Assembly (NCBI GenBank): GCA_002421665.1
Contig: DISH01000004.1
Location: 381,900-445,899, forward strand
Origin: Candidatus Omnitrophica bacterium UBA6215
Lineage (GTDB): Bacteria; Omnitrophota; Gorgyraeia; Pluralincolimonadales; Pluralincolimonadaceae
Direction: 5' to 3'
DNA length: 64,000 bases
In this document: one piece after another, positions 22,169 through 50,697 of the stretch
Layout of the letters: every line of letters starts with the position of its first letter
Numbering within the stretch: the stretch's first letter is position 1
Notes under the pieces: generated by a model
Seen by the model: the letters and a program-made list of their open reading frames with translations, nothing else
What the model was told of the DNA's origin: nothing
The model's database searches: none
Program-made: the position numbers and the translations under genes

Positions 22169-22554
22169 ACAGATTCGTTAAAGGATTGAAATTTGACGAG
22201 AACGGGCTGATACCGGCGGTCATACAGGACGCAAAGAACAACGAAGTACTCATGGTCGCTTATATGAACGATGAAGCCGCGGAGAAGACATTAAAGACAA
22301 AGAAAGCTCATTTTTATTCCAGGTCAAGGAAGAAACTCTGGCTTAAAGGTGAGTCATCGGGGCATGTTCAGAGGGTAAAAGAGATACGTTTTGACTGCGA
22401 TGCCGATTGCCTGCTCGTAAAGGTCGACCAGGTCGGCGGCGCATGCCATACGGGTTACAGGTCATGTTTTTACAGAAAACTTAAGGACAATAAAGGCAGT
22501 ATTTGCATATCCGGAAAGAAAATGTTCGATCCGGATAAAGTCTATAAAAAATGA
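22165..22554 (+). CDS. hisI: phosphoribosyl-AMP cyclohydrolase (monofunctional HisI)
   Basis: GLIPAVIQD...[45 protein letters not shown]. No HisE-like C-terminal extension. Confidence 0.9.
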
Positions 22555-24029
22555 CAGATTATAAGCCGTCAAAAGATGAATTTATAAGGCTCTCGAGAAA
22601 AGGGAATCTTATTCCTGTTTTCAGGGAGATAACCGCCGACCTGGAGACGCCCGTTTCTGCCTTCATGAAGATAGATAGAGGCGGTTATTCGTTCCTGCTG
22701 GAGTCGGTCGAGGGAGGGGAAAAAATAGCGAGGTATTCTTTCCTGGGCTCGAACCCTTACCTTGTCTTCAAGAGCAAGGGGAGGAACGTCGAGATAACCG
22801 AGGGCGGTAAAAAGAAATGTTTCAAGACGGCCTCCGATCCCTTGGCCGAGATGAAAAAAGTAATGCAAAGATACAGATTTGTTCGTACCGGGGGTCTTCC
22901 TCGTTTTTGCGGAGGGCTTGTCGGTTTCATGGGATACGATATGGTGCGCTTTTTCGAAAACCTCCCGTCAAAGAACCCCGATAACCTTGGATTGCCGGAT
23001 TCCGTATTCCTGCTTACAGACACCATACTTATATTTGATCACGTCATGCATAAGATAAAAGTAGTTTCGAACGCTTTTGTCGATAATGATCCTTCCGGGG
23101 CCTATAATGAAGCCGTGAGGAAGATCGATGCCCTTATAAAGCTCATGAATGTTCCCCTGAAGGTAAAATATGCGGGGGACCGCCGCCCGGAACCAAAAGT
23201 TACATCGAATTTTACCAGGGAAGGTTTCATGGGCATAGTCAAGAAGGCGAAGAGTTATATCAGGATAGGTGACATAATCCAGGTAGTGCCTTCCCAGAGG
23301 TTTGCTACTGCAACCAGATGTAAGGGGATAGACCTTTACAGGTCCTTAAGAATGATCAACCCGTCGCCTTATATGTATTACCTTAAACTCGGCGATATGG
23401 CGCTTATAGGTGCTTCGCCGGAACTCATGGTAAGGTGCGAAGACAGCACCGTCGAGCTCAGACCTATCGCGGGTACACGCCCCAGAGGAAAGACGGAAGA
23501 AGAAGAAAGACGTTTGGAAAAGAACCTCCTCTCCAGTATCAAGGAAAGGGCCGAACATATAATGCTTGTCGACCTGGGCCGCAATGATATCGGGAGGGTT
23601 TGCAGGTACGGCAGCGTAAAGGTATCCGAACTTATGGTAATAGAGAAATATTCCCATGTCATGCATATAGTCAGCGAATGTACGGGAAAGCTCAAACAAA
23701 ACAAGGACATGTTCGACGTAATAAGGGCGACTTTCCCTGCCGGGACCGTTTCGGGTGCACCAAAGGTAAGGGCAATGGAGATCATAGATGAGCTCGAGAA
23801 TACCATGCGCGGCCCGTATGCAGGTCTTGTAGGCTACTTTAGCTTTTCGGGAAATACGGACACCTGTATCAATATCAGGACTATCGTCCTTAAAGGCGGT
23901 ATGGCATATGTGCAGGCAGGCGGCGGTGTTGTGGCTGATTCGGATCCCGCAAGGGAATACCAGGAAACGGTCAACAAGGCAAAGGCGACCATAAAAGCCA
24001 TCGAAGCCGCAGAGAGAGGTATCCTGTAA
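22551..24029 (+). CDS. trpE: anthranilate synthase component I
   Basis: Chorismate-binding enzyme motifs ([38 protein letters not shown]). Confidence 0.93.
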
Positions 24030-24030
24030 T

Positions 24031-24600
24031 ATGATATTGATGATAGATAACTATGATTCTTTCACTTATAATCTCGTCCAGTACTTCGGGGAGATGGGCG
24101 CATCGCTGAAAGTCATCAGGAACGACAAGATATCGCTCAGGGAAATAGCGGGCATGAAACCGGATGGTATAGTGATCTCGCCCGGACCGGGGTTCCCTAA
24201 AGACGCGGGGATCTCGAACTCCGTTATAAAGGAATTTGCAGGAAAGATACCGTTGCTGGGAGTTTGTCTCGGACACCAATGCATAGGCGAAGTGTTCGGG
24301 GGCCGGGTGATCAAAGCAACACGGCCAATGCACGGGAAGACTTCAAAGATACATCACGACGGTAAAGGCATATTCAGGGGCCTGCCGAACCCTTTTGAGG
24401 CTATAAGGTACCATTCGCTTGTGGTCGAGCGCAAGTCCCTGCCGGAGTGCCTGGAAATAACCGCCCAGACCAAGGAAAAAGAGATAATGGGGCTCAAGCA
24501 CGGGAAATATCCGGTTTGGGGGGTGCAATTCCATCCGGAATCCATCCTTACGTCCGGCGGGAAGAAAATGCTGAAAAATTTTATGGAGCTTTCCCGATGA
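24031..24600 (+). CDS. trpG: anthranilate synthase component II (glutamine amidotransferase)
   Basis: [25 protein letters not shown] catalytic Cys, HPES. Confidence 0.9.
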
Positions 24601-25607
24601 TAAGAGAGGCTATCTCCAAACTCGTCAGGTCTGAAGACCTTACAAAAAAAGAGATCGAATTGACCATGGACGAGATCATGACGGGCCAGGCCCTGCCTGC
24701 GCAGATCTCATCGTTCCTTACCGCCATGAGGATGAAAGGCGAGACCATAGACGAGATAGCCGGCGCGGCAGGAGTAATGAGGAAGTATGCGACATATATA
24801 AGGACAAGGCATCCATGCGTCCTTGATACCTGCGGTACGGGAGGGGACGAGTCCCAAACATTCAATGTATCTACCGTCGCAGCTTTTGTTGCAGCCGGGG
24901 CCGGAGTCGCGGTCGCGAAACACGGTAACAAATCGGTCTCGTCAAAATGCGGCAGCGCGGACCTTCTTAACGCCCTTGGTGTAAATATCGACGTAAGCGA
25001 ACATATGGTATCCAGATGTCTCGATGAACTTGGCATAGGTTTCCTTTTCGCGCCGGCATTACATAAGGCAATGCGATATGCCATAGGCCCGCGCAAGGAG
25101 ATAGGCATACGTACCATATTCAATATTTTGGGTCCCCTGACGAACCCTGCGAAGGCCTCTTACCAGCTGCTTGGGGTTTACGATCATAAGCTGACCGAAC
25201 CCATAGCGCGGGCTCTGGGTAAATTGGGTTCCAGGCACGCATTGGTAGTCCACGGCGAGGACGGTCTCGACGAGGTCACGACAACGGATATAACGCAGGT
25301 ATCGGAACTAAAGAATGGGAAGGTAAAGAATTACGAGATCTCCCCTAAGCATTTCGGCATAAAGAAAGCAAAACCTGCAGACTTAAAAGGAGGCGACGCC
25401 GCCTATAATGCAAAGCTGGCGATGTCAATCCTCGGAGGGGAAACAGGCCCCCAATACGATATAGTGATATTTAACGCCGGTTGCGCAATTTATGCCGCAG
25501 ACAGGGCGCAAAGCATAAAAGAAGGCATAGAACTGGCTGGAGAATCCGTCGAGTCCGGAGAAGCCTTGAAAAAACTCGAACAGCTCAAGGAGGTGACTAA
25601 CTCATGA
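24597..25607 (+). CDS. trpD: anthranilate phosphoribosyltransferase
   Basis: MIREAISKL start with an ATGA overlap on trpG. GTGGD motif, KHGN. Confidence 0.9.
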
Positions 25608-26380
25608 TAACCCTCGATGAGATAATAGAACATAAAAAACATAAGTTGGAACGCTTACAGGAAACGCTTTCCCTGCCCGATATCGAAAAGAAAGCCTCAC
25701 CCGTAAAGAACAGGGGTTTTAAAGCCGCGATATCCCGCGGCAACAGGGTGAACTTGGTAGCTGAAATAAAAAAAGCTTCGCCCTCGCACGGCATAATAAG
25801 GCATGATTTTGACCCGGTAAGCATAGCCTCCGTATACAAGGAAAGCGGAGCAAGCGCCCTTTCCATCCTGACGGAGGATAAATATTTCCAGGGCAGCCTG
25901 GAGATACTCTCCAATGTAAGAGATGCGGTAAATCTTCCGGTAATGCGCAAAGACTTCATAATATCGGAATACCAGATATTCGAATCGGCCATTGCGGGCG
26001 CAGACGCGGTTCTCCTTATTGCTGCAGCACTGGACAGGGGTATGCTCAAAGCGCTTTTACATGAGGCATCTTCCCTGGGAATGGAGACCATGGTCGAAGT
26101 CCATGACGAACGCGACCTTGATAAGGCCCTCGGCGCAGGCGCAGGCATAATAGGTATAAACAACCGCAACCTAAGGACCATGGAAGTAGATTTGGCCGCT
26201 ACCATCGAACTTATTCCAAAAATCCCGGATGGTAAAATAACCGTGTCGGAAAGCGGCATAAGGGAGCCTGAGGATATCAGGACCTTGTCCCAATACGGGA
26301 TAAAAGCGGTCCTTGTGGGCACTGCGTTCATGGAGGCGAATGATATTGCCTCAGAGGTCAAACGGGTGATGGATTGGTAA
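25604..26380 (+). CDS. trpC: indole-3-glycerol phosphate synthase
   Basis: VAEIKKASPS.G.I, LSILTEDKYFQGS, NNRNL motifs. Confidence 0.93.
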   Translation: MITLDEIIEHKKHKLERLQETLSLPDIEKKASPVKNRGFKAAISRGNRVNLVAEIKKASPSHGIIRHDFDPVSIASVYKESGASALSILTEDKYFQGSLEILSNVRDAVNLPVMRKDFIISEYQIFESAIAGADAVLLIAAALDRGMLKALLHEASSLGMETMVEVHDERDLDKALGAGAGIIGINNRNLRTMEVDLAATIELIPKIPDGKITVSESGIREPEDIRTLSQYGIKAVLVGTAFMEANDIASEVKRVMDW

Positions 26381-27006
26381 GAGTAAAGATATGCGGGATC
26401 ACTAATCTTACCGACGCCCAAGCCGCGTGCAGGCTTGGGGCCGATGCTATCGGTTTTATATTTACGGAGAGTCCGAGGAGGGTGAACGCCGCAAAAGTAA
26501 GGGCTATATCGGCAAAACTCCCTCCTTATGTCACTACGGTCGGGGTATTCGCCGATGAAAAAATGTCTAATGTCTTAAGGATGGCAAAAAAATGCAGGCT
26601 CGACTGTCTCCAACTGCACGGAGATGAACCGCCGGACTATTGCAGGAAGCTTAAGAAGTATTATAAAATAATAAAAGTGATAAGGGTAAAAGATGCAGGG
26701 AGCATAAACGAGGCAAGGAGTACGGATGCCGATGCGTTCCTGCTTGATGCATATATTAGCGGGAAGAAAGGCGGCACAGGAACGGTTTTTGACTGGAAAT
26801 TGGTTTCCAGGGCTAAAAGATTGGGGAAGCCTGTCATATTATCGGGCGGTTTGAATCCCGGGAACATCCGGAAGGCCGTAAAGCGGTCAAGACCTTACGC
26901 CGTCGATGTCTCCAGCGGCGTGGAAACCCGGCCCGGAAAAAAAGATATAATGCTTATGGGTGATTTCATCAGGAAAGTAAGGTCGGACAACTCAGGAAAG
27001 GAATGA
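26374..27006 (+). CDS. trpF: phosphoribosylanthranilate isomerase
   Basis: MVRVKICGIT...ADAIGFIF...LLD...GGTG. Confidence 0.9.
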   Translation: MVRVKICGITNLTDAQAACRLGADAIGFIFTESPRRVNAAKVRAISAKLPPYVTTVGVFADEKMSNVLRMAKKCRLDCLQLHGDEPPDYCRKLKKYYKIIKVIRVKDAGSINEARSTDADAFLLDAYISGKKGGTGTVFDWKLVSRAKRLGKPVILSGGLNPGNIRKAVKRSRPYAVDVSSGVETRPGKKDIMLMGDFIRKVRSDNSGKE

Positions 27007-27009
27007 TAA

Positions 27010-27552
27010 ATGAGTTCGAATAAACGCATGCACCGTCGCCTGGCGCTTGACGTAGAAGTCAAGTGGCACAGGAAAAAGGACAAATCCTCAAGCAGCAAAG
27101 CTTACATGTTAAGAAGCAAGAATTTCGCTCAACACGGGCTGTTCCTGAAGACGGACAAGAAGTTCAGGATCGGGATGGATATGGACCTCGAATTCATCCT
27201 TCCGACCATATCCCACCCCGTCTGCGTATCGGGAAAAGTTGCATGGATCGCGGACAAGGACAGAAACCCTACATATTATCCGGGCATAGGAGTAAAATTC
27301 GTTAAAATTGACCCGGAAGACAAGAAAGAACTCATGAAATTCCTTAACCGTAAGTTCCGCAATTATAAAGACGCACAGGAGCTTAAAAAAATGTACCTGA
27401 CCCTTATAGATATGGGCGCAAGGCTTGTGGAACTCGGAGAAAGGCATCCCGGAGCCATCTATTTCAAGAAGGCGGTGGATAATTCGATAAAAGAGATCTC
27501 CGAGGTGGCCCACCTTATAGACAAGGAAGTATCCGAGATTAAGAACCTTTAG
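27010..27552 (+). CDS. PilZ domain-containing protein (putative c-di-GMP receptor)
   Basis: RxxxR motif (RMHRR) near the N-terminus, N-x-A-x-x-G at the second motif position, and G-I-G-V-K-F characteristic of the PilZ C-terminal strand. Starts 4 nt after the trpF stop. Confidence 0.55.
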   Translation: MSSNKRMHRRLALDVEVKWHRKKDKSSSSKAYMLRSKNFAQHGLFLKTDKKFRIGMDMDLEFILPTISHPVCVSGKVAWIADKDRNPTYYPGIGVKFVKIDPEDKKELMKFLNRKFRNYKDAQELKKMYLTLIDMGARLVELGERHPGAIYFKKAVDNSIKEISEVAHLIDKEVSEIKNL

Positions 27553-27561
27553 GAGGTTTTT

Positions 27562-28413
27562 TTGATGAATGTATTTAAGACCGTCCTGTTCCTGAGCCTC
27601 CTTACGCTGCTTCTTATTTTCGTCGGCGACATGATAGGAGGCAGGCAAGGCATGATAATTGCTTTTGCTTTGGCCTTGGTAATGAATTTTGCATCTTACT
27701 GGTTCTCCGATAAGATAGTCCTGGCTATGTACAGGGCGAAAGAGGTGAACAGGCAAGAGTACCCCAAGCTTGCCACGATAGTCTCAAACTTATCCACGAA
27801 AGCGGGTTTACCTTTACCCAGAATTTATATTATCCCTACGCAAGCTCCCAATGCCTTCGCAACGGGCAGGGATCCTTCCCACGCAGCAGTAGCAGTGACA
27901 TCGGGTATAATGGATATCCTTTCCGACGATGAACTCGAAGGGGTTATATCCCACGAACTTTCCCACGTCAGGAACAGGGATACGCTTGTAATGACGCTTG
28001 TCGCCACCATCGCCGGCGCCATATACATGCTTTCTAATATGGCCAGGTGGGCCATGATACTCGGGGGGAGGGATGACGACAGGGAAGGCGGGAACGTGTT
28101 TGGTATACTCATAATAGCGATACTTGCCCCTATCGTGGCGACCCTTATCCAGCTGGCCATATCGCGCTCGCGCGAATATATGGCGGATGAATCCGGCGCA
28201 GGCATCAGCGGCAGGCCTCTTTCGCTTGCCAGTGCCCTCAGGAAATTGCACCAATATTCAAAACAGGTCCCGATGAACGCTAACCCTACCACCGCGCACT
28301 TATTTATTGTCAACCCGCTTACGGGCGGGGGCCTGCTTTCCCTTTTCAGTACGCATCCTCCCGTAGAGCGCAGGATAGCGCGATTGGAAGAATTCGCTAT
28401 AAGACCGAAATAA
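27562..28413 (+). CDS. htpX: membrane zinc metalloprotease HtpX (peptidase M48)
   Basis: HELSHV zinc motif (HExxH), 4 TM helices and conserved HtpX C-terminus ([14 protein letters not shown]). Confidence 0.9.
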
Positions 28414-28414
28414 G

Positions 28415-30400
28415 ATGATCCTGCCGAGCGGTCTGTTCGCCAACAAGGACCCGGTCGCAGAAGAAGGGTTCTCCTGTTCCCGTACTTTCGGAAAAGGAGG
28501 AATACTTTCAAAGGTTTTCCGGGATTATGAGTTCAGGCCGCAGCAGAAAGAGATGGCCGAATCCGTGGAAAGGGCAATCCGGGCAGCCCGCCATCTTATT
28601 GTCGAGGCCGGCACCGGGGTCGGAAAATCGTTCGCATATCTTGTGCCCGCGGCTGATTTTGCTATAAACTCAGGCAGGAAAACCGTCATATCTACCGATA
28701 CCATCAGCCTGCAGGAGCAGCTTGTAAGAAAAGACCTTCCTCTTGTTTCGAGGATACTTCCGGACGAATTTAAGTTCTGCCTGGTGAAGGGCCGGTCCAA
28801 TTATCTTTGCCTTAGGAGGCTCAACAGGGTCTTCTCCTCGAAGAATGACCTCTTCGATTCAAAACAGGAGGCCGGGGAGGTGGGTGATATACTCGCGTGG
28901 TCAAAAGTCACTACTGACGGCTCCCTATCGGACTTTGCCGCTGAACCTTCGCGCAAGGTATGGGAAAAAGTATGTTGCGAACACGATACCTGCCTGAGCA
29001 AGAAATGTCCGCACAGGAACGAATGTTTCCTTATGCAAGCCCGCCGGAACATGCAGGAATCCGACCTGATAGTCGTGAACCATCACCTGTTCTTCTCCGA
29101 CCTGGCTCTGCGCAAATCCGACTGGGCCCTGCTGCCTGATTATTCATGCGTGATATTCGATGAGGCCCATACCATCGAGGATGTCGCGACAGAACATCTG
29201 GGCTTTGAGGTATCTAATTACAAAGTAAAATATCTTTTGGACTCCCTTTACAACCCCTCAAAAAAGAAAGGGTTCCTTGTATCGGTAAAGAATAGCTCTC
29301 TTAAAAGAACGGTAACTGCTGTCCGTGAAGCTTCGGAAAATTTCTTCGCGGATATCTCGGATTGGCTTGGCGCCTACGGCGTAAAAAGGGTAAGGGAACC
29401 GGGTTTTATAGATGACACGCTATCCGGACCCATGAAAGAACTTTACGAAAGCCTTAAAAAGGCCATGAAAGGTTCCCGCTCCAAGGATGAAGAACTGGAT
29501 TTCAGGTACTATATGAATAGGCTGGAAGGATTATCCCAGGAATTGGAGATCTTCATGGACCAGAAATTGGGAGATTATGTTTATTGGTCCGAAGTATCGG
29601 GCAGCAGGTCCCGCAGGACGGCGCTCGATTGCGCTCCGGTCAATATAGCCGCGGCTCTAAGGGAAAACCTTTTCTCGAAGACAGGGACCGTGATCCTTAC
29701 AAGCGCTACCCTGTCAACCGAAGGTAATTTTGAATATATAAAGGGCAGGCTCGGCCTCGATAAGTGCTCGGAAAAACTGCTCGGTTCGCCGTTCGATTAT
29801 GAGAATAACGTCAAGATATACATTCCCAGGAACATGCCGGACCCTAACGATTATGCAAAATACAAGACGGAGGCCGTAGCCAGGATAAAGGACTATGTAT
29901 CAAGGACCGAAGGCAGGGCATTCGTCCTTTTTACCAGTTACAGGTTTATGGACGATGCCTATAATGAGACGGCTGATTTTTTCGAGAATATGGGCATCCC
30001 GATACTTAAACAGGGCGCCGGTTTGCCCAGGACGAAGATGTTGGAAGCCTTCAAGCGGGACAAGGGCTCCGTGATATTCGGGGTGGACTCTTTCTGGACA
30101 GGCGTGGACGTACCCGGTGAAGCCCTCAGCAACGTAATAATAACAAAACTTCCTTTTGCCGTGCCTGACCACCCCATATCGGAAGCCAGGATGGAAAGGA
30201 TAAAGGAGGCGGGGGGAGATCCCTTCAACATGTACAGCCTCCCGCAGGCGATACTCAAGCTCAAACAGGGTTTCGGGAGGCTTATCCGCACGAAACTCGA
30301 TACCGGCATGGTCGTCATACTCGACAGCAGGATACTCCACAAACCTTACGGAAGAAAGTTTTTGTCGGCGCTGCCTAATTGTGAGATAATAATCCAATGA
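28415..30400 (+). CDS. dinG: ATP-dependent DNA helicase, DinG/Rad3 (XPD) family with Fe-S cluster
   Basis: Walker A GTGVGKS, DEAH box (VIFDEAHTIED), four-Cys Fe-S insertion (CCEHDTCLSKKCPHRNEC) and helicase C_2 domain. Confidence 0.85.
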   Translation: MILPSGLFANKDPVAEEGFSCSRTFGKGGILSKVFRDYEFRPQQKEMAESVERAIRAARHLIVEAGTGVGKSFAYLVPAADFAINSGRKTVISTDTISLQEQLVRKDLPLVSRILPDEFKFCLVKGRSNYLCLRRLNRVFSSKNDLFDSKQEAGEVGDILAWSKVTTDGSLSDFAAEPSRKVWEKVCCEHDTCLSKKCPHRNECFLMQARRNMQESDLIVVNHHLFFSDLALRKSDWALLPDYSCVIFDEAHTIEDVATEHLGFEVSNYKVKYLLDSLYNPSKKKGFLVSVKNSSLKRTVTAVREASENFFADISDWLGAYGVKRVREPGFIDDTLSGPMKELYESLKKAMKGSRSKDEELDFRYYMNRLEGLSQELEIFMDQKLGDYVYWSEVSGSRSRRTALDCAPVNIAAALRENLFSKTGTVILTSATLSTEGNFEYIKGRLGLDKCSEKLLGSPFDYENNVKIYIPRNMPDPNDYAKYKTEAVARIKDYVSRTEGRAFVLFTSYRFMDDAYNETADFFENMGIPILKQGAGLPRTKMLEAFKRDKGSVIFGVDSFWTGVDVPGEALSNVIITKLPFAVPDHPISEARMERIKEAGGDPFNMYSLPQAILKLKQGFGRLIRTKLDTGMVVILDSRILHKPYGRKFLSALPNCEIIIQ

Positions 30401-32912: not shown

Positions 32913-32985
32913 TATCACATTGTAAATCAAACTTCTGATATCTTCTTTAAAAACAAACCTAAGTTAACCAAAAGGGGTTCCCGTA

Positions 32986-34503
32986 ATGCCGGTAAGGTCC
33001 AAGTCTACGGTGGTAGTTTTGGTAATTTTGTCAACGCTTTTTTCCATTATCCCTCTACAACAGGCCTGTTGCGAAACAAATCCCGACATAGAACAAGGTG
33101 TAAAACTTTACAGGCAGGAAAATTTTGATGAAGCTGTGCCCATATTACAAAAGGCCAGGAAAGAAAACCCCGATTCCTCGCTGGCCGCGTATTACCTGGG
33201 TATTACTTACAAGCAGCTTCAGGATTACAGGCAGGCCAGATCACAGCTCATTGACGCCGTCACGCTTACTCCCCGTATAAAAGAAGCTTTGGTCGAGCTG
33301 ATAGATGTAATGTACCAGCTGGGGGATTTCAAGGGAGCGAAAGAATATATTGAAATTGCAGAGAGGGAAAATATCAAACCTGCGCAGGTTGCTTTCCTTA
33401 AAGGCCTTGTCCTCCTGAAAGACGGAGAGGCAGCCGATGCCATAACAGCTTTCGAACAGGCAAAAGGCCTGGATAACTCCTTAACCCAGGCCGCTGATTA
33501 CCAAATCGGCATCGCGAATTTAAAAGAAAAGAATTATAAGGACGCCAAGAAGGTTTTCCAGGAGATAATAATACTCGATCCTAATTCCGACCTCGCGGGC
33601 CTGTCATATGAATATATGGATGCCCTGAAGCGCAAGGAGGAGGCCGAGAGGCCGTTCAGGGCCACGCTTAACGTCTCGGGCCAATACGACACTAATGTAT
33701 TGCTGAAGCCGGGAGACGATACCGTAGCTACCGGGATAACCAATGAAAGCGACTGGAGGGAAGTAACTAATTTCATGGGCCAATACAGGCAGAAGATCGG
33801 AGAAAAATTCGGCATAGACAGCCAGTATTCGATGTACTGGGCCCACCAGAACAAGATCGGCGCGTACGATGTCATGAGCCATACCGTGACGGTAACGCCC
33901 AACTATTACATAAAGAACGGGACTATCGGTGTGGCTGCCGGCTACAACTACACTGATGTCGGAGAATCCAAATATATGACTACTATTACCGCCAGCCCGG
34001 TCGTTAACTACGTTATCAGGAATAACCATATGCTTCAGGCGAATTTCAAGTACCAGAAGAAAGATTTCGCAAGGGAATCTTTCATTGACGATGAGAACAG
34101 GGATTCCAATGATTATGGCGGAGGTTTGGGCTATTTCTTTTTCTTTGCCCAGAACAAGGGTTTCTTCGGGCTGCACTATGGTTTAAATAAGGAAGATACC
34201 AAAGGGCGGAACTGGGAGTATCTCGGCAACAGGATCACCGCCACGGCATTGATACCTTTCCTTAAGAAATTCAGATTGAGTCTCGCCGGCGATGTTTTAC
34301 TCCAGGATTTCTCCAACACGAACAGTATATTTAATGTTAAACGTAATGATGAGACCTATACGGCATCTTCCATGCTCGGTTATACATTTTGGAAAGAGGC
34401 GGAACTGCAGTTCAGGTATACGTACATAAAGGACCATTCAAATATAAAAGTATATGATTATGACAGAAGCATCTACAGCGTTGGGATCGAGTATAAATTT
34501 TAA
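32986..34503 (+). CDS. outer-membrane protein with N-terminal TPR domain and C-terminal beta-barrel (Slam/DUF560-like architecture)
   Basis: Signal peptide, ~190 aa of TPR-like repeats (AAYYLGITYKQLQDYRQA..., VAFLKGLVLLKDGEAADAITAFEQA...), then ~290 aa of amphipathic beta strands ending in the canonical OMP beta-signal (IYSVGIEYKF, alternating hydrophobics, terminal Phe). Confidence 0.6.
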   Translation: MPVRSKSTVVVLVILSTLFSIIPLQQACCETNPDIEQGVKLYRQENFDEAVPILQKARKENPDSSLAAYYLGITYKQLQDYRQARSQLIDAVTLTPRIKEALVELIDVMYQLGDFKGAKEYIEIAERENIKPAQVAFLKGLVLLKDGEAADAITAFEQAKGLDNSLTQAADYQIGIANLKEKNYKDAKKVFQEIIILDPNSDLAGLSYEYMDALKRKEEAERPFRATLNVSGQYDTNVLLKPGDDTVATGITNESDWREVTNFMGQYRQKIGEKFGIDSQYSMYWAHQNKIGAYDVMSHTVTVTPNYYIKNGTIGVAAGYNYTDVGESKYMTTITASPVVNYVIRNNHMLQANFKYQKKDFARESFIDDENRDSNDYGGGLGYFFFFAQNKGFFGLHYGLNKEDTKGRNWEYLGNRITATALIPFLKKFRLSLAGDVLLQDFSNTNSIFNVKRNDETYTASSMLGYTFWKEAELQFRYTYIKDHSNIKVYDYDRSIYSVGIEYKF

Positions 34504-34520
34504 CAGAGGAGACGCCTGAT

Positions 34521-37500
34521 ATGAAGAAATTTTGCGTAAAACTACTGGCCCTGGTAACGGTAATGGGAGGGATATTCCTTACCTGTTCACCGTATTCTCT
34601 CGCGGATGTTATCGGAAAAATATCCGCTACCGAGGGAAGGGTTGACCTGTTGAAATCCGGCGGCGATACCGCCTCCGAAGTCAGGGTCGGTGATTGCGTA
34701 TCCTCAGGGGACATACTAAGGACCAAGAGCGGATCCAAGGCGGAGATCGCCTTTACCGATACGTCCGTAGTCAGGTTATCCGAAAACACCAGGCTGGAGA
34801 TCACAGATTACGGTTTTGGTCCAGGCGGAAAAAGAGCTGACGCTGCCCTTTTTCTTGATAGGGGCAAGATCAGAGCTATACTCTCAAGATCAGCGGAAGG
34901 GAGCTTCGTGATCAACACCCCTAACGCTGCCGGAGCGGTAAAAGGTACGGATATAGTGGCGATATACCAGAGGTCTTCGACCTCAATCGCCGCGCTCAAC
35001 GGCAAAGTTTTGGTCTCAGGAATGTCACCCTCAGGTAAACCGGTTGAACTGACAAGCGGTCAAACATCCGTAATCTCCGGAGAGACAGCTCCAAGCGCGC
35101 CCAGAATACTGCTTTCCATGGAGATTAAAGCGCACGAATCAGATACGGGAATATCCAAAGGATCTATGGCGGCGGAAAAATCTTCCGATGATAAGATGAC
35201 TGCTGAAGGTTATAGCGCACCCGATGGTATGAAAGCCGTAGTAACAAAAACCGCCGGCGGCGTAAGGATAAAGAACCGCGGATCAATAACGTGGCATGAC
35301 GCCAGAGAAAATGAAGTCCTCGCCGCGGGTGATTCCGTAGAAACTAAGGATAACGGAAAGATAGAGATAAGACTTGAGAACGGTAACGTAATAACATTGC
35401 AGCAGAACTCCAGCCTTATAATTCAAAAACTTTCATCCGACAGCAAGACCGGCAATTACGAGAACCTTCTTGAGTCCGGCGGCGGAAAACTCCGGGCCCA
35501 GGTACAGAAGATAAAGGGCAATTCGAAGTTCGAGGTCAAGACCCCTAATGCAGTTGCTTGCGTTCGCGGTACGATAATGTACCTGAACATATTACCTGGC
35601 CTGACAAACTCATATTTCGAAGAAGGCAACGGAACGCTTCGAAATCTAATCTCGGGGACAGTAAAAGACGTCCCTATCGGAACGGGCGCTGCCGCGGACG
35701 GCAATGGTAATATATCGGACCCGGTCCCGCCAAGCGATGACCAGAAATCGCAATGGCACCAGGGTTGGGATGTCGGCGGTGAAGCCGAAGGCTATTCAGC
35801 TCCTTCCGGGGACTTGGGTCAGGGCGGCGACTCAGACAACAACAGCGGAGATACAGGTTTCCAGAACGTCGTTTTCGACGAAAAACCGGTAACGGATATT
35901 ATCGGCACTACGGAGAGCGGGGGCGGTCCGGGCGGCAGCGAAGGCGAAGGGGGCATAACTAACCCCTATATAACAGGAACTTCATCCGGCAGTTTCGGGT
36001 TCGTCGAACCGGACGAGTATAATAATTTTGACGCTGTTCTCTCCAGCAACACCGTATTATCTTCGCCGTGGGCCGGGCAACTCGATCTTCACGTAAGCGG
36101 CGAATTCATGAGTCCGGGATACAGGATATTCGAAGGCAATATCACCGCTGCGAGCGTTGATGGAGGTACGTCCTTCGGATGGGTAGGCGGCATAATGCAC
36201 AGTTGGGAAGGAATATTATCTTCTATATATATAGATCCTTCCGGCAGGGCAGGCAACCTGTTCGGGTATTTATCCGGTACGAACACCGTAGAAACCGGGA
36301 CCGGATCCTATTACGGCGATTTCTCGGGCAGCGGTGATATTTTTGTTATCCAGATGGCTCAATTAGAGGCTGGCATCGAGTATCCGGTAGAATACGGTGA
36401 AGGATATGGTGACCTGCGCTTGGCTTTCAATAACGGGAACGGCTTGTTCTACGCTGATTTCGACAGGCAGCTGGCCAGGATAGAGGGACAGGATTGGGGG
36501 ATCTGGAGGGATGCTTACCGCGGGAGTTATTATAATCCGGATAATTTGAATGAATGGATCGGAAATGCAGGCGGCCGTTACGGAGAAAAAGGTTATTTCT
36601 TCGCGACTGTCGAAGGCATTGACGATCTTGAGGGCGGAGTCAGGATGGACATGACCGGCGCCTATCTGGATATGTATACGCTTGGGGCATACTACGGCTC
36701 TATTCTCGCCGGCTATGGAGAAGGAACGGAAGGAATCGGGTTGGGCGGATATACTGAAGAAGCCCTTACCTCCAGCGCAATACACGGAAACTACAGTTAT
36801 TCGGGACAATTAAGCGGCATTTTAGGCACTACAGGCTCGCTTTGGTCTGGCAGTCCGTTCTATCTGACATCCATAGGCAATCTTGAGGATGAGTACGATG
36901 GCGAATTTGATAATTTTATATGGTATACCGATTTCATAAGCACCGACAACGATAACGAAAGATATACGGCCTACTCGGCGGAAGAAGGAATAGGCTCTTA
37001 CTACGGCACTACCTCAGGCGTAGGCAAAGACAACACCATGAAGGGGTTCAGCAGGTTCATCTATATAGATCCCTCCGGGTATGCCGGAGTATTCAAGGGA
37101 AGTGTTGACGGCGCTTATTCGCAGGCAATAGGCATGTATATTTTTGACGGAAAGGCCGCAAGAGATACCTCGGTGGATCCAGTGTTTGTAAGCCTGTCCC
37201 CGGAAGCCCTCAACTATTCCATATGGCTTAATTCCGGCGAAGGTAACCTTGAGGGTTATTATTCGGATGGAGGGCGCGTATATGGTTATGACAACCTCTA
37301 TTCAGCCTCAATCGCCGATTTCGGGAACGGGACAGCCCAGAACTGGGGTATTTATAACCAGCGGATAATCGGACAATCCTACATGGAACTCGCGGACGAC
37401 TTTTCCGCTAAGATGGGCGGCAAAGACAGTTTTGGTTGTTATAATCCTACGATAATGCACTATAATACATATAATTCCGGCGACGGGGCCTCTTATAGCT

Positions 37501-40500
37501 GCGAATATTCGGAAAATAACAGGTACGGGTATTCTTACAGGTACGAACCGGGCCCGGACACATATAAGTATACCTATACTTATTATTACGCGGACGGCAC
37601 AACATACACGAACACATGCATTTATGACAGCGGCTGGAATTACCTTTCCGGCGACGGGGTATATGATACTTGGGATACTTCATCTTCTTTAGCGGACCTG
37701 TTAAGCGCGGCACCGGAAGGCTACAGCCTTTCATCTGAAAGCTCATATTCTTATGCCGAAAATGATTACGGCTTTTGGATAGCCGATGTGAACGCTTCCG
37801 GAAGCGATTGGTTTGACGGGACTCTTAACGGCGCGTTCATTACATATACAAAGATGGGCCTGATGCAGGGTGATCTCACCGGTTCATATACAGATGATAC
37901 CGGCGGGTGGATAGCCGCCGGCTCAGGCACTTGGAATGGCAACCGGCTTACCATGAGCGGCATGTGGGGTGAGGACACAAGTAGTCTGTACGAGAACAGT
38001 TACGGATATCCGTCCTTAGCCGGTGAAGAATACGGGCTTCTCGGCTCTACGGTCGAGGAGTGGTGGAATAAAACCTCTTTCCCTGTATTGGCGATGGGCA
38101 GATACTATTCTTACGGCACGGACGATCAGCCTATAATCTGGATAACACCGTTCAACAGCTATAACGCCGAGATGGATAACCATACCTCTCTCGACGGTTC
38201 AGCGTTCTACGGTCTTACCGCGGGCATATGGAAAGACGGCTTGATGTCGGACGCAAAGGCTGTTGCAATATACGCTGCCCCGGATGGAAGTATGGGTATA
38301 ATCAAGGGAAACCTTGGCGGAGAATACTATCCGGGTCTGGATATGTGGATGGCAACCGGATCTTTGTCCGCCCTGCAAAAAAGCGGAGAATCAATAGACC
38401 CGGCATCCCTTTACGAGAGTATAACTACCTCGGATATGCCGTATTTATACGCCGGGGGTTCGATTGATGGAGCGGTCGTTTACGGTGAATCTTCCGACGG
38501 ATACTTATATTCAGTCGACGAAGGTCAGTGGGGCATATTTGATTTCAAGACCGGCGGCAACTATAACGACGAATGGGTTGAATCCAAAGAGAAGGGCCTT
38601 GCCTTCGGATTCACGGACGGTCTTTACGGGCCTTCCATGCTCCTGACATCGACCGACGCGTCCGTCGGTGACGGTACCATCGCCGGCACTCTTTCCGGAT
38701 CTTGCATAGACCTTCTCGAAGGAACTATAAGCAAGCTGAACGGCGATATCCGCGGAATTTACGACAGCGATAATAATACCTGGATCGCCGCGGCCATCGG
38801 CGAATGGGAAAAGAAATTACTCGCCTACAGCGGTGTCGTAATGGAAGGCGGGTTCGGTTATTTTTACGGCGAAAACGAAGGACCTTATCTGGATGACGGC
38901 GGGCTTGACGCGATAATGGGCGGCTCCGACGACCTCTTTGACGGTTCAGCCGAGATCTCGATAGTCGGGAACGCGTGGAACCCGGACTACAATGAGGATT
39001 GGACGGGCGACGATAAGCTGTGGGCAGGCGATTTCTTCATAACTACCGACGATAACGCCGCAGCCACGGGTACGATAGGAGGTACCAGCCTGAACAACAG
39101 CTTCAAAGGCGCTTTGCTTGGTCTGTACATCCGCCAGACGCAGGACGGTTACAAAGCAGGATATATAACTTCTTCCGACGCCTTCGGGAACCGCGACTTC
39201 CTTTCGGGGAATTTCTATCCGTCATTATCAATGTTCAGCGCCGAAGGCAGCCTAACGGCTTTCATGGATACTCCTACGGAATTCACGCCGGAAGATATAC
39301 TTTTTGGCAATGAATCCGCTTTGCTGAGCGATGACTTCTATGACCCGATCGTCGGGGACCTCAACGGCGACCTTTACGGTGAGGACCTCCAGATAGCGGA
39401 CCAACAGTGGGGAGTCTGGCGCGCGGGATGCGGCGGTTGGCTCGATTCCGTCCCGGCCGGCAATTGGAATTCTTACATAGCCGAAAGCTTTGAAGACCAA
39501 TACGGGGAATATTCGTTCCCGTATTATTCACTCATCTATATCGACGGAACCACTACCGCGGACAACGGGCTTGAGGCCGTTATACACGGTTACGACCTCG
39601 GTATGACATACCTAAGCGAGGCTTCGGGGTTGATGGCCGGCGATTATGATACCGGCGAGATGAGATGGGAAGGCCTTAGTTTGGGGACTTGGGTTGAGAA
39701 GGAATTAACTCTCAGCGGACTCGCCTCCGGGGGAATAAGAGCCGCCGGAGACTGGGATAACTGGTTTGACCCGGGCGACAGTTATGAAGACTTCTCCGGA
39801 GAATTCTCCGGTATAATAGGATCTACGCAGACCGGATGGCAGGACGGAAGTTTTAAGGCCGTAGCAATGGGTGATTATGCGATCAACGAGTCCGCCAATT
39901 CATACCTGCTCAACGCTGAAATGGGAAGTTTTAATGCACGCGAGATATCTCCGGTTACCCTCGACGGGGAAGGTGCTTTCTACGGGTTTGCCCACGCGGC
40001 TGTCGGAGATTCTGCCGATGGCAGGCTGACGGATACCGCTTCGGGATTGAGGCTGGCCGCCATATATATAGCTTCTAACGGGACCGGCGGCTATAATGCG
40101 GGAGTGCTAAGGGGCGGGCTTGACATGGATCTAGTGGAGATCCCCTACGACGGTGAAGTCGGCATGTGGATAGCCGAAGGCTACCTGACCCCTTACGCAA
40201 TGGAAACCGATATCGGCATCTCTCCGGAAGAACTACCGGATTATATATCCTGGGACTGGGAAGTGCTCGGTGCTTCGGGTGTCGGCTCGTTCTCAAACGG
40301 CGGCGCCATCCAGGCCGATTACTTTACCGGGGACACGATGTCCATAGAAGGCTACGACCAGTGGGGGATAATGCAGGCTGCCCTTACCGGACAAACATCC
40401 TCGGTCGTAGATTCGGATTGGAGATTGGCCTTGGGAGGCGCTTCTTATACCGACGATTCGCATGAGATTGCGGACGGTTATTTCCTTATCTCGGCCGGCG

Positions 40501-41126
40501 GAGATTCCTGGTCGAACAACGTATTTGACGGGACCTTCAGGGGCGTATACTTGAGCGAGATAGACGAAAATACCTTTAACGTCGGAAAGATAGAAGGTGA
40601 TGTCGTAGGCAATTACCAGCAGGTTGAAGGGGTAGATACCGTCTTCCAGGCACAGATGCTCGGAGAATGGGTAGATCTTGCGGAATTGAGCACGGATGTG
40701 CTTGGATTCAATAACGATGCGTTAGCCGAGATGGTCCAGATACCCGTCACGGAAACCTATACAGCGCTTCTGCAGGGTGCCGGCGGATTCGGACCCGCCG
40801 GGGATATCGGGGCTATAACATCCAATATGGACATAAGCTTCTATGCCCAGCAGGCAACCGACCTCAGCGGCATATGGGCTGCCCTGATAAACGGGAACTA
40901 CTCCGGGTATACCGGAAGCGACAATTGGTCTGTCAATTATTCCAATAACGGCGTTAACGCCACGCTTACGGGTACGCAGTGGAATGACGGACAATGGCTC
41001 GCGAACGTATCCGGAAATAACGGAAATTCTACATTTACCGGACAGGCGGGCGGCACCTATACCGGCACAGACAGCGGTACTTTTGATGGTGCAGGCGCCG
41101 GGACATGGAACACCCCGACTCCGTAA
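34521..41126 (+). CDS. giant (2201 aa) secreted protein with tandem N-terminal FecR domains and a ~1700-aa Gly/Tyr/Asp/Ser/Thr/Trp-rich degenerate-repeat region
   Basis: Sec signal (cleavage after SLA). First FecR-like domain at ~aa 35-160 (...FVINTPNAAGAVKGTDI) and second at ~aa 245-360 (...FEVKTPNAVACVRGTIMYL). The rest has extreme composition, almost no K or R, and recurring IYIDPSG.G..G and (Q/D)WG(I/V)(W/F) motifs. SD GAGGAG 7 nt upstream, 17 nt after the upstream gene. Confidence 0.7.
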   Translation: MKKFCVKLLALVTVMGGIFLTCSPYSLADVIGKISATEGRVDLLKSGGDTASEVRVGDCVSSGDILRTKSGSKAEIAFTDTSVVRLSENTRLEITDYGFGPGGKRADAALFLDRGKIRAILSRSAEGSFVINTPNAAGAVKGTDIVAIYQRSSTSIAALNGKVLVSGMSPSGKPVELTSGQTSVISGETAPSAPRILLSMEIKAHESDTGISKGSMAAEKSSDDKMTAEGYSAPDGMKAVVTKTAGGVRIKNRGSITWHDARENEVLAAGDSVETKDNGKIEIRLENGNVITLQQNSSLIIQKLSSDSKTGNYENLLESGGGKLRAQVQKIKGNSKFEVKTPNAVACVRGTIMYLNILPGLTNSYFEEGNGTLRNLISGTVKDVPIGTGAAADGNGNISDPVPPSDDQKSQWHQGWDVGGEAEGYSAPSGDLGQGGDSDNNSGDTGFQNVVFDEKPVTDIIGTTESGGGPGGSEGEGGITNPYITGTSSGSFGFVEPDEYNNFDAVLSSNTVLSSPWAGQLDLHVSGEFMSPGYRIFEGNITAASVDGGTSFGWVGGIMHSWEGILSSIYIDPSGRAGNLFGYLSGTNTVETGTGSYYGDFSGSGDIFVIQMAQLEAGIEYPVEYGEGYGDLRLAFNNGNGLFYADFDRQLARIEGQDWGIWRDAYRGSYYNPDNLNEWIGNAGGRYGEKGYFFATVEGIDDLEGGVRMDMTGAYLDMYTLGAYYGSILAGYGEGTEGIGLGGYTEEALTSSAIHGNYSYSGQLSGILGTTGSLWSGSPFYLTSIGNLEDEYDGEFDNFIWYTDFISTDNDNERYTAYSAEEGIGSYYGTTSGVGKDNTMKGFSRFIYIDPSGYAGVFKGSVDGAYSQAIGMYIFDGKAARDTSVDPVFVSLSPEALNYSIWLNSGEGNLEGYYSDGGRVYGYDNLYSASIADFGNGTAQNWGIYNQRIIGQSYMELADDFSAKMGGKDSFGCYNPTIMHYNTYNSGDGASYSCEYSENNRYGYSYRYEPGPDTYKYTYTYYYADGTTYTNTCIYDSGWNYLSGDGVYDTWDTSSSLADLLSAAPEGYSLSSESSYSYAENDYGFWIADVNASGSDWFDGTLNGAFITYTKMGLMQGDLTGSYTDDTGGWIAAGSGTWNGNRLTMSGMWGEDTSSLYENSYGYPSLAGEEYGLLGSTVEEWWNKTSFPVLAMGRYYSYGTDDQPIIWITPFNSYNAEMDNHTSLDGSAFYGLTAGIWKDGLMSDAKAVAIYAAPDGSMGIIKGNLGGEYYPGLDMWMATGSLSALQKSGESIDPASLYESITTSDMPYLYAGGSIDGAVVYGESSDGYLYSVDEGQWGIFDFKTGGNYNDEWVESKEKGLAFGFTDGLYGPSMLLTSTDASVGDGTIAGTLSGSCIDLLEGTISKLNGDIRGIYDSDNNTWIAAAIGEWEKKLLAYSGVVMEGGFGYFYGENEGPYLDDGGLDAIMGGSDDLFDGSAEISIVGNAWNPDYNEDWTGDDKLWAGDFFITTDDNAAATGTIGGTSLNNSFKGALLGLYIRQTQDGYKAGYITSSDAFGNRDFLSGNFYPSLSMFSAEGSLTAFMDTPTEFTPEDILFGNESALLSDDFYDPIVGDLNGDLYGEDLQIADQQWGVWRAGCGGWLDSVPAGNWNSYIAESFEDQYGEYSFPYYSLIYIDGTTTADNGLEAVIHGYDLGMTYLSEASGLMAGDYDTGEMRWEGLSLGTWVEKELTLSGLASGGIRAAGDWDNWFDPGDSYEDFSGEFSGIIGSTQTGWQDGSFKAVAMGDYAINESANSYLLNAEMGSFNAREISPVTLDGEGAFYGFAHAAVGDSADGRLTDTASGLRLAAIYIASNGTGGYNAGVLRGGLDMDLVEIPYDGEVGMWIAEGYLTPYAMETDIGISPEELPDYISWDWEVLGASGVGSFSNGGAIQADYFTGDTMSIEGYDQWGIMQAALTGQTSSVVDSDWRLALGGASYTDDSHEIADGYFLISAGGDSWSNNVFDGTFRGVYLSEIDENTFNVGKIEGDVVGNYQQVEGVDTVFQAQMLGEWVDLAELSTDVLGFNNDALAEMVQIPVTETYTALLQGAGGFGPAGDIGAITSNMDISFYAQQATDLSGIWAALINGNYSGYTGSDNWSVNYSNNGVNATLTGTQWNDGQWLANVSGNNGNSTFTGQAGGTYTGTDSGTFDGAGAGTWNTPTP
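36140..41090 (+). repeat. in-frame degenerate protein-level tandem repeat (about 6 units of ~250-350 aa) inside the giant ORF
   Basis: Module A copies: SIYIDPSGRAGNLFGY, FIYIDPSGYAGVFKGS, AIYAAPDGSMGIIKGN, SLIYIDGTTTADNG, AAIYIASNGTGGYNAG. Module B copies: QDWGIWRDAYRG, QNWGIYNQRIIG, GQWGIFDFKTGG, QQWGVWRAGCGG, DQWGIMQAALTG, LSGIWAALINGN. They alternate at roughly regular spacing. Confidence 0.4.
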
Positions 41127-41416
41127 TGATACGTTATATAGCCCTGGTGTCAATTCTGGCTATTTTATTTCCCGGTTGCGGGAAGCCGGCCGCTAATCCG
41201 GCTTCCGCGCAGCCCGCGCCAAGGGTGCTCGCGACGGTTAACGGCGAACCTATATCCGATAAAGACCTGAAACTTTCCCTTGCCATACGCCTTATGGATG
41301 ATCCAGATTTCAAGGTAACTCCTTCCACTAAGAACGAACAGATACAGATGATCATCGACGAACGCCTGGAACTGCAGCGCAAGGACAGGGCTTCTTCGGA
41401 CATTAAGATATTCTGA
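41126..41416 (+). CDS. small lipoprotein/periplasmic protein with SurA N-terminal-like chaperone motif
   Basis: Start codon overlaps the giant ORF stop (TAATG). Signal MIRYIALVSILAILFPGC followed by VLATVNGEPISDKDLKLSLAIRL..., resembling the SurA/PpiD N-terminal domain. Only ~96 aa. Confidence 0.45.
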   Translation: MIRYIALVSILAILFPGCGKPAANPASAQPAPRVLATVNGEPISDKDLKLSLAIRLMDDPDFKVTPSTKNEQIQMIIDERLELQRKDRASSDIKIF

Positions 41417-41444
41417 AATTTCTTCCGCCTATCCCCGTAATATG

Positions 41445-41499
41445 ATTGACTAAGACCTTACTCTGTGATAAACTTTATTTTTATTCAATCAAAATAAAG
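41445..41499 (+). promoter_or_regulatory. putative internal promoter (TTGACT, 17 nt spacer, TAAACT) followed by a perfect 9-bp A/T inverted repeat CTTTATTTT-(9 nt)-AAAATAAAG directly upstream of trpB
   Basis: TTGACT at 41445-41450. TAAACT at 41468-41473. Inverted-repeat arms at 41473-41481 and 41491-41499. trpB SD AAAGAGG at 41496-41502. Confidence 0.35.
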
Positions 41500-41509
41500 A
41501 GGTTATGAC

Positions 41510-42700
41510 GTGAAACTGCCCGATAAGAAAGGCCATTTCGGCGTTTTCGGAGGAAAGTATGTCCCGGAAACCCTGATGGCGGCCCTGGAAGAGCTTGAGG
41601 CGGAATATTCCGCCGCTAAAAACAACAGAAGGTTTGCCGAGAAATTCCGTTATTACCTGGAAGCATACGCCGGCAGGCCGAGCGGTCTTTATTTTGCCGA
41701 AAAATTGACCAAAACCCTTAAGGGCCCAAAAATATACCTGAAGAGGGAAGACCTGCTGCATACCGGTTCCCATAAAATAAACAATACCCTGGGCCAAGGT
41801 CTGCTTACCGTACGCATGGGGAAGAAAAGGATAATTGCCGAAACCGGCGCCGGACAGCACGGCGTAGCCACCGCGACCGTAGCGGCTCTCTTCGACCTTG
41901 ATTGCGAGGTATTTATGGGAGAAGAAGACATTCGCCGGCAGGCCCTTAACGTCTTCAGGATGAAACTCCTGGGCGCGAAAGTCACTCCGGTCACAAGCGG
42001 CAGCAAGACGCTGAAGGACGCTATGAACGAAACGATGAGGGACTGGGTCACTAATGTGCGCGCCACCCATTATTGCATCGGATCGGTCGCCGGGCCGCAT
42101 CCGTTCCCAATGATGGTAAGGGATTTCCAGTCGGTTATCGGAAAAGAGACGCGGCGCCAAATACTAAAAGCAGAAGGCAGGCTCCCCGACTATCTTATTG
42201 CCTGCGTGGGAGGCGGGTCTAATTCCATGGGGCTCTTCTATGATTTCCTTGACGACAGGAAGGTTAATTTTATAGGGGTTGAGGCCGCGGGCAAGGGCTT
42301 GAATACAGGCCTGCACGCAGCCACTCTGGAAAAGGGCGATATCGGCGTGCTCCACGGCAGTAAGAGTTATCTGCTGCAAGACGACTTTGGACAGATAAAG
42401 ATAGCGCACTCGGTATCCGCCGGGCTGGATTATCCCGGAGTAGGCCCGGAACACTCATTTTTCAAGGACGCGGGCAGGGCAAAGTATGTATCGGCCACGG
42501 ACACGGAGGCATTGGAAGCTTTCCGTCTTCTTTCAGAGACTGAAGGTATAATACCGGCCCTTGAGTCGTCGCACGCCATAGCTTACCTCATAAAAGCGGC
42601 CAAAAAGATGAAAAAAAGCGACCTTGCGGTAGTCTGCTTGTCGGGCAGGGGCGATAAGGACGTGGACATGGTCTCGCAGGTCCTCGCAGACAAAATATGA
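41510..42700 (+). CDS. trpB: tryptophan synthase beta chain
   Basis: GTG start. [14 protein letters not shown] and [12 protein letters not shown]-lysine motif. GGGSNS. Confidence 0.95.
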
Positions 42701-43494
42701 ACAGAATAGATAAGAAATTCTCCGATCTCAGGAAAAACGGCAGGAAGGCCCTTATAGCCTTCTTTACGGCAGGTGACTTCGGGCTCACGGCCACGAAAAA
42801 ATTCGTCATTGAATTCGAACAGAGGGGCGTAGATATCATTGAGCTGGGCGTCCCTTTTTCGGACCCCGTTGCTGACGGACCTACTATACAGTCTTCCTCT
42901 GAAAGGTCCCTGAAAAGGGGCACAAGGCTCAAGGACATAATATCCCTCGTCGGGCAACTGCGAAAGAAAACCCAGATACCCATAGTCCTGATGGGTTACT
43001 ATAACCCTATACTCAAATACGGCCCCGCCAGGTTCATTTCAGACTGCGTAAAGAACGGCGTTGACGGTGCGATAATCCCTGATCTGCCCCCCGAAGAATC
43101 TGGTGAATTGACGGCGGCGGCAAAAGGCAGGAATTTCGACATAATATTCTTCCTGAGCCCGACAAGCTCCCTCAAGAGGATAAAGATGGTCTCCGGGATG
43201 ACCAGGGGTTTTATCTACTACGTTTCCCTTACGGGAATCACCGGGGCAAGGTCTTCATTGCCCGCCGGGTTCGCTGCACGAGTAAAGTTGATAAAAAAAA
43301 CCTCCGATAAACCGGTGTGTGTCGGTTTTGGAGTCTCGATGCCGGAACAGGCAAAGCGCATCAGCGCCGTAGCTGACGGTGTTATCGTGGGTTCGGCTAT
43401 AGTAAAACAGATGGAAAAGAATTCCTCGAATAAGAAGTTCGTAAAGAATGTAGGCAATTATGTCCATAAACTTGCGGAGGCTACCCATCAATAA
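42697..43494 (+). CDS. trpA: tryptophan synthase alpha chain
   Basis: ATGA overlap with trpB. TrpA motifs ([30 protein letters not shown]). Confidence 0.93.
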
Positions 43495-50696: not shown

Positions 50697-50697
50697 T

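Follow-up and report, generated by a model that had tools for sequence, protein, structure and literature searches.

Introduction

In Bacillus subtilis, aro, trp, hisC and tyrA genes are united in an aromatic supraoperon. Documented features of trp operons include splits, conserved non-trp genes at the flanks, and unrelated genes lodged between trpF and trpB or trpB and trpA (Xie et al. 2003, as cited in Kagan et al. 2008, PMC2395257); the break commonly described falls between EGDC and FBA. Here we report on a trp operon that is interrupted between trpF and trpB in Candidatus Omnitrophica bacterium UBA6215. The stretch of DNA analysed, hereafter the window, is 64,000 nucleotides (nt) long (assembly GCA_002421665.1, contig DISH01000004.1, positions 381,900 to 445,899 of the forward strand), and it carries trpEGDCF and trpBA on the same strand with a block of eight genes between them. 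Our data make it very probable that the split goes back to an ancient relocation of resident genes into a contiguous trpF|trpB junction and that it has been inherited vertically; the region is predicted to be read now as three units. A preprint on complete Omnitrophota genomes (10.64898/2026.06.07.730766) reports full Trp and His pathways, and this arrangement is not described there.

The split trp operon and its polarity

The trp genes of the window are intact and lie on the plus strand in the order E-G-D-C-F-B-A, with full-length Pfam and NCBIfam matches for each protein. The first group, trpE (22551-24029; Chorismate_bind and Anth_synt_I_N), trpG (24031-24600; GATase), trpD (24597-25607), trpC (25604-26380; IGPS) and trpF (26374-27006; PRAI), occupies 22551-27006, and within it neighbouring genes overlap by 4-7 nt or, in one case, stand 1 nt apart. 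The second group, trpB (41510-42700) and trpA (42697-43494), occupies 41510-43494 with a 4-nt overlap, and 14,503 nt separate the trpF stop codon from the trpB start. The latter is a GTG, 7 nt past an AAGAGG Shine-Dalgarno sequence, and this GTG is kept in relatives. A TrpB2-type identity was considered for trpB and ruled out, the protein scoring 634 bits with NCBIfam TIGR00263 (cut-off 392) versus 183-187 bits with the TrpB-like models. The locus is thus not a contiguous whole-pathway operon forming a single transcription unit, since a gene on the minus strand and two conserved sites resembling promoters lie in the gap. It has the form of a split trp operon, in which EGDCF is bounded by hisI and a PilZ gene, BA by a small lipoprotein gene and manC, and the canonical order is kept.

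A TrpF identical to that of the window is encoded on 18 contigs, and in all five of those shown (L001-L005, from separate samples; L numbers are used below for the contigs compared) the PilZ gene comes directly after trpF, while in four of the five the block extends through to the FecR gene. Because separate samples share the trpF-PilZ order, as do other species, a chimeric assembly is excluded as the origin of the arrangement. Homologues of TrpF, TrpB and DinG that carry a source name come overwhelmingly from Candidatus Omnitrophota/Omnitrophica, including genomes of the WOR_2 lineage. Close relatives were gathered by exact-protein look-ups; within the clade that they form, TrpF is 51-74% and TrpB 76-94% identical to the proteins of the window. 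The block is present in L086, L087, L089-L091, L093 and L098-L106 (TrpF 51-74% identical), all of which display the trpF side of the split except L093, where the trpB side is seen as CHASE2 - o172(-) - TPR - FecR (1933 amino acids) - 101 amino acids - trpB - trpA - manC - ruvX - M16 - PGM - lepA - lepB - pgsA - plsY - gpsA. Every member of the clade, even the rearranged contig L092, retains the adjacency trpF-PilZ-HtpX-DinG, in which 1-25 nt separate the genes.

A scan of genome contigs with a TrpF alignment listed matches of at most 52% identity from a broad range of phyla, which served for background rates and as a source of outgroups. Among the matches listed, the nearest lineages outside the clade are L045, L062, L026, L048 and L080, and they keep the flanking order of the window. 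In L045 and L062 the genes run alaS-hisDBHAFI-trpEGDCF-trpB-trpA-manC-ruvX-M16-PGM, which is the order of the window minus the block, and only 17-26 nt lie between trpF and trpB. The other three, all Omnitrophota, have one gene at the junction, coding for an M20 peptidase (L026), a SPOR-domain protein (L048) and a coiled-coil protein (L080, Candidatus Gygaella); these genes are unrelated to the block and to one another. In a neighbour-joining tree of concatenated TrpEGDCF (1440 columns, 100 bootstraps), the 12 block-bearing taxa are monophyletic with 100/100 bootstrap support, and the clade that adds L026, L048, L045 and L062 is supported in 90/100. In the broad sample, which comprises 68 informative loci from many phyla among the matches listed, trpF adjoins trpB in 39/68, the two genes are 0.6-3.5 kb apart in 8/68, and no trpB lies within 3-10 kb of trpF in 21/68.

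Since the outgroups are contiguous with identical long-range flanks and the block carriers are monophyletic, these comparisons indicate that the split is derived from a contiguous ancestor, and the parsimonious reading is an insertion that took place once, or as a series, in the ancestor of the clade. That the carriers form one clade with TrpF identity down to 51% points to an old and vertically inherited insertion, not a recent one. The ancestral array would have read alaS-hisDBHAFI-trpEGDCFBA-manC-ruvX-M16-PGM-lepA onward. In the common ancestor of one Omnitrophota clade, a chromosomal rearrangement, in one step or several, would have relocated resident genes into the trpF|trpB junction, namely those for PilZ, HtpX, a DinG/YoaA-like helicase and a CHASE2-PP2C sensor phosphatase together with a surface-protein cassette (TPR protein, FecR-domain giant and small lipoprotein). 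No mobile element would have taken part, and the split would have been passed on vertically since then.

Two other accounts of the junction have to be weighed against this one. The first takes trpF|trpB for a recurrent landing site that has received at least four different insertions across lineages, PilZ and CHASE2-PP2C having been captured for a useful co-expression with the His and Trp enzymes and a new trpBA promoter compensating; such a capture would link cyclic di-GMP or PP2C signalling to amino-acid biosynthesis, and we regard it as very improbable. The second, which we find very improbable, holds that the interrupted arrangement is the ancestral one and that the contiguous trpF-trpB of the sister lineages results from deletion of the block. 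The single genes in L026, L048 and L080 do tell us that the junction has not always been tight, but they are unrelated to the block and to each other, and a tblastn search recovered no trace of PilZ, HtpX, DinG or the cassette at the sister-lineage junctions. Contiguity is moreover the majority state in the broad sample, and with gaps as short as those of L045 and L062 and a long-range synteny that is otherwise identical, the deletion would have to be both precise and repeated.

As a separate observation, a second, divergent trpB lies directly upstream of trpF in many genomes labelled Geobacter, Desulfuromonadales, Nitrospirota and Nitrospinota among the matches listed (L016, L017, L025, L030, L033, L040, L042, L043, L046, L056, L069, L072, L075 and L083). 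It is 31-35% identical to the TrpB of the window, a TrpB1-type gene is usually found downstream, and it may be TrpB2-like.

The intervening block and its source

The relocation of resident genes that we favour concerns a block whose first gene, on the plus strand at 27010-27552, codes for a PilZ-domain protein of 180 amino acids (Pfam PF07238); it starts 3 nt past the trpF stop codon and has its ribosome-binding site within trpF. There follow, on the same strand, genes for an HtpX-like M48 membrane protease (27562-28413; PF01435), a DinG/YoaA-like XPD-family helicase (28415-30400; Pfam, and 630 bits with the NCBIfam YoaA model, under its cut-off of 680) and a CHASE2 sensor fused to a PP2C (SpoIIE) phosphatase (30397-32295; Pfam). 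Convergent with the last of these is the minus-strand gene of a secreted 172-amino-acid PEP-CTERM protein (32290-32808), whose TIGR02595 score of 18.2 bits is barely above the cut-off of 16. After a spacer of 178 nt, the plus strand resumes with a TPR protein (32986-34503; Pfam and NCBIfam) that has a DUF2860/EpsL-like C-terminal part and is likely located in the outer membrane. The next gene (34521-41126) encodes a protein of 2201 amino acids with an N-terminal FecR/LipL45-like domain (Pfam FecR), probably a surface protein, for which the NCBIfam matches to Lsa33, LipL45 and the LapA retention module are all under cut-off. The block closes with a small lipoprotein of 96-103 amino acids bearing an LFPGC lipobox (41105/41126-41416, plus strand; called from the open reading frame and its translation), which matched no Pfam family and has a 54% identical homologue at the same position in L093; 93 nt then remain before trpB. 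Taken as a set, the TPR-FecR-lipoprotein cassette (32986-41416) resembles an outer-surface system, given its DUF2860/EpsL-like C-terminus, weak match to a LapA-type retention module, FecR/LipL45-like domain and small lipoprotein. The best-conserved protein of the region is PilZ, with 73-97% identity across the clade and 93-97% in relatives whose TrpF is only 59-74% identical, and its gene always directly follows trpF there.

The earlier note on this DNA had described trpEGDCF and trpBA as split by about 14.5 kb, with a translationally coupled trpEGDCF running on into PilZ, HtpX, DinG-like and CHASE2-PP2C genes, and with the opposite-strand PEP-CTERM gene, a three-gene cassette, a GTG-start trpB, trpA, manC and ruvX following in that order. 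The open reading frames and the Pfam and NCBIfam matches bear out each of these genes, their positions and their order, and the junctions, none of which has a gap above about 12 nt as far as the CHASE2-PP2C gene, are consistent with the coupling.

Several lines of evidence bear on whether the block is a mobile island. Pfam and NCBIfam detected no integrase, transposase or recombinase domain in any block protein, and a repeat search returned no direct or inverted repeat pairing both block boundaries. The sole tRNA gene of the window is at 52389, 11 kb downstream of the block, so that none is adjacent. Gene by gene, block and flanks do not differ in GC content (p = 0.30), GC content at third codon positions (GC3; p = 0.17) or synonymous codon-usage distance (p = 0.80; Mann-Whitney tests), and the dinucleotide signature of the PilZ-to-CHASE2 half is inside the range of random segments. 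The DinG-like homologues are 59-100% identical inside the clade and at most 53% outside it, identity passing from 59% to 53% at the boundary. Beyond the clade, the orthologues (about 50% identity) occupy different loci, beside an AddA-like nuclease-helicase gene in L108, and in L109/L110 a DinG-like copy comes after coaBC, near a CHASE2-GAF-HD sensor. The native composition, the lack of mobility genes and repeats, and the location of the outside DinG copies elsewhere together indicate that the block is made of resident genes that moved and is not a mobile island.

The proposal that the block instead reached the trp operon by horizontal transfer, as a genomic island or integrative element, could draw on the 14.5 kb of functionally unrelated genes interrupting a pathway cluster, on the slightly deviant dinucleotide signature of the cassette half, on the drop from 99.5% to 76.5% identity at 32293/32874 in this half between near-identical strains, and on the hypervariable loci with housekeeping genes aboard that have been reported from Omnitrophota chromosomes (preprint 10.64898/2026.06.07.730766). 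Besides the mobility and composition data above, it has to contend with a block that, at least in its PilZ-to-DinG half, is found in every sampled member of a deep clade, and with a DinG-like identity gradient that looks vertical. Neither differing chromosomal sites in close relatives nor att-like repeats with a recombinase were seen, and we judge such an acquisition very unlikely. Also very improbable is a functional linkage in which amino-acid biosynthesis is coupled to signalling (cyclic di-GMP, PP2C partner switch) or quality control and selected co-expression maintains the split: the constant trpF-PilZ-HtpX-DinG adjacency, L092 included, and the unusual conservation of PilZ would suit it, but packing alone signals no shared function in a region that is a string of unrelated housekeeping genes, the same genes are located elsewhere outside the clade, and we know of no biochemical link between the PilZ, HtpX, DinG or CHASE2-PP2C families and tryptophan synthesis.

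With regard to the origin of the block, the view of the earlier note that it was inserted into an ancestral trpEGDCFBA operon agrees with the contiguous L045 and L062, which have the same flanks, and with the confinement of the carriers to one clade; its remark that the block is not obviously mobile also holds. Two of the comparisons that it had proposed bear on this. In gene order, trpF and trpB adjoin in L045 and L062; relatives inside the clade share the same intervening genes, so the insertion is ancient. In composition, GC, GC3 and codon usage are the same as in the flanks and only the dinucleotides of the cassette half are marginally high.

One further observation concerns the neighbourhood of the helicase outside the clade. 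In L109 (10001-15324) and L110 (3845-9168), the DinG-like gene is closely followed by a CHASE2 sensor that has a GAF-HD output, not PP2C, with a pilin-like N_methyl protein encoded between the two. A DinG-CHASE2 neighbourhood may thus predate the move into the trp junction.

A long array and its predicted transcription units

The trp genes are not a free-standing operon but part of a much longer array of co-directional genes reaching upstream at least to alaS, and the plus strand encodes nearly all of the 64-kb window. Upstream, alaS-hisD-hisB-hisH-hisA-hisF-hisI (15639-22554, plus strand; open reading frame map, with Pfam labels from the identical genes in L001) runs without gaps into trpE, which hisI overlaps by 4 nt. 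From hisI to the CHASE2-PP2C gene, the junctions in the map are overlaps of 4-7 nt or gaps of at most about 12 nt, a spacing that is consistent with translational coupling. Downstream of trpBA, the array continues as manC-ruvX-M16-PGM-lepA-lepB-pgsA-plsY-gpsA, a synteny seen in L093, L094 and L095. Two features of this array deserve mention in their own right. The packing is extreme in 15639-32295 and 41510-52309, the former holding 17 genes in 16.7 kb from alaS to CHASE2-PP2C with several overlapping pairs and no gap above about 12 nt, and the his and trp pathways are fused through the hisI/trpE overlap, the long array being also kept outside the clade in L045 and L062.

A strict motif made of a -35 element and an extended -10 element (TTGAC-N13-16-TGnTAnAnT) occurs three times in the 64 kb, versus 0.15 expected, and the sites, at 4469, 32884 and 41446, are all on the plus strand, intergenic and just upstream of genes. 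The second corresponds to a predicted sigma-70-type promoter with an extended -10 (TTGACA-17-TG-TATACT, 32884-32912, plus strand; 11/12 in the promoter scan) for the TPR/FecR/lipoprotein cassette; here TTGAC and TGnTAnAnT are invariant in seven lineages, including those that have no PEP-CTERM gene. The third is a predicted extended -10 promoter found in the same scan (TTGACT-17-TG-TAAACT, 41446-41474, plus strand) about 35 nt upstream of trpB, and in this case TTGAC and TGTGnTAA are invariant in four lineages. One of them is L095, in which trpB has a wholly different upstream neighbour, a PCMT methyltransferase gene, yet the motif is kept; because trpBA is on another contig in that genome, this shows that the predicted trpB promoter travels with trpB. 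In the outgroups, no such motif was present upstream of trpB, which abuts the preceding gene. The rarity and placement of the motif suggest that very few strong consensus promoters may drive very long gene arrays.

As for control elements, Rfam at the gathering threshold found in the whole window only a tRNA-Pro, with no leader, T-box or riboswitch, and the leader of trpB after its predicted promoter would be only about 30 nt long. No trp-specific attenuator, T-box or TRAP leader is apparent upstream of trpE, where the overlap with hisI leaves no room for one. A terminator scan of the sequence gave no more matches than shuffled sequence did.

Because conserved promoters precede the TPR gene and trpB, three transcription units are predicted in the region, with trpBA under a promoter of its own. 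The first unit would comprise (alaS-)his-trpEGDCF-PilZ-HtpX-DinG-CHASE2/PP2C, coupled by overlaps and tiny gaps and ending against the convergent PEP-CTERM gene. The second would be the TPR-FecR-lipoprotein cassette under a conserved extended -10 promoter of its own, and the third trpBA together with the downstream housekeeping genes, again with a conserved extended -10 promoter.

Continuing turnover of the block

The two halves of the block differ in constancy, the PilZ-to-DinG half being present in all members of the clade while the cassette half varies in the presence of the o172 gene, in FecR length and in a swap found in L096. L091, L096 and L104 lack the PEP-CTERM gene, and the FecR protein ranges from 644 to 2340 amino acids among relatives. 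In one species, represented by the overlapping contigs L103 and L094, an extra gene of 437 amino acids lies between PilZ and HtpX, and the cassette is shorter and has no TPR gene. We had considered L094 as a variant without PilZ, which was rejected: its first gene and the one that L103 has between PilZ and HtpX are 100% identical, so the contigs overlap and PilZ is present.

The swap in L096 is confined to the cassette half. This contig matches the window at 99.5% identity for 14.7 kb, as far as the CHASE2-PP2C stop codon (32293); positions 32294-32873, the PEP-CTERM region, are then missing, and identity falls to 76.5% where 32293-35010 of the window, which takes in the TPR gene and the first part of the FecR gene, aligns with 14655-16807 of L096. 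We read this pattern as a strain-level replacement of the cassette.

A further change has taken place in the genome GCA_043798215.1. On its contig L092, trpF-PilZ-HtpX-DinG is followed by unrelated genes and SMC, the block being broken after DinG, and on L095 trpBA-manC and the downstream genes lie behind glycosyltransferase and PCMT genes. The two contigs show a second, complete separation of the trp halves.

Discussion

Some observations weigh against the ancient relocation and vertical inheritance that we consider very probable, or against parts of that account. The polarity depends on the taxon labels given by submitters and on a neighbour-joining tree whose data are the trp proteins themselves, and L045 and L062, the two contiguous outgroups, carry the label Planctomycetia. 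The data fit both assembly of the block in one step and a stepwise one. In dinucleotide signature, the cassette half slightly exceeds the 95th percentile of random segments (60.3 vs 55.0); given this deviation and the cassette swapped in one strain, the cassette half may be exchanged laterally between strains. As to expression, the promoters and transcription units are predictions that come from sequence conservation only. No terminator was found between the lipoprotein gene and trpB, and internal promoters could also contribute, as could transcription running on from the cassette into trpB.

What we describe is real but ordinary operon splitting, marked by an EGDCF|BA break, a large insert, clade-wide fixation and a compensating (predicted) promoter. 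The picture of trp operon evolution remains unchanged; records of splits and of inserted genes reach back two decades. The locus does offer a clean and datable example of how a pathway operon breaks up, with resident genes entering one junction, a predicted dedicated promoter then standing before the orphaned distal genes, and an insert that is still changing. The placement of Omnitrophota trp genes inside a very long conserved array that has no pathway-specific leader also bears on the regulation of biosynthesis in uncultured, possibly host-dependent bacteria.

Compared with genomic islands and integrative elements, the block is similar in that several genes interrupt a conserved cluster and in that its surface-protein cassette varies between strains. 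Unlike them, it lacks a recombinase, att or direct repeats and a tRNA target, does not deviate in composition, and has descended vertically through a deep clade. The B. subtilis supraoperon is closer in organization: here too, trp genes belong to a longer co-directional unit, shared with his and housekeeping genes, with coupling across pathway boundaries and predicted internal promoters. However, Rfam detects no trp-specific control element (TRAP site, attenuator or T-box) in the present locus, and the array, which is much longer, combines his and trp genes with those for an aminoacyl-tRNA synthetase, signalling and lipid synthesis. The nearest likeness is to the split trp operons, since in those (PMC2395257), as here, sub-clusters with the canonical order and one orientation are parted by unrelated genes. 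Against the break commonly described, the one reported here is EGDCF|BA, and the insert, at 14.5 kb and 8 genes, is of unusual size, with both halves flanking it on one strand and the arrangement fixed across an Omnitrophota clade.

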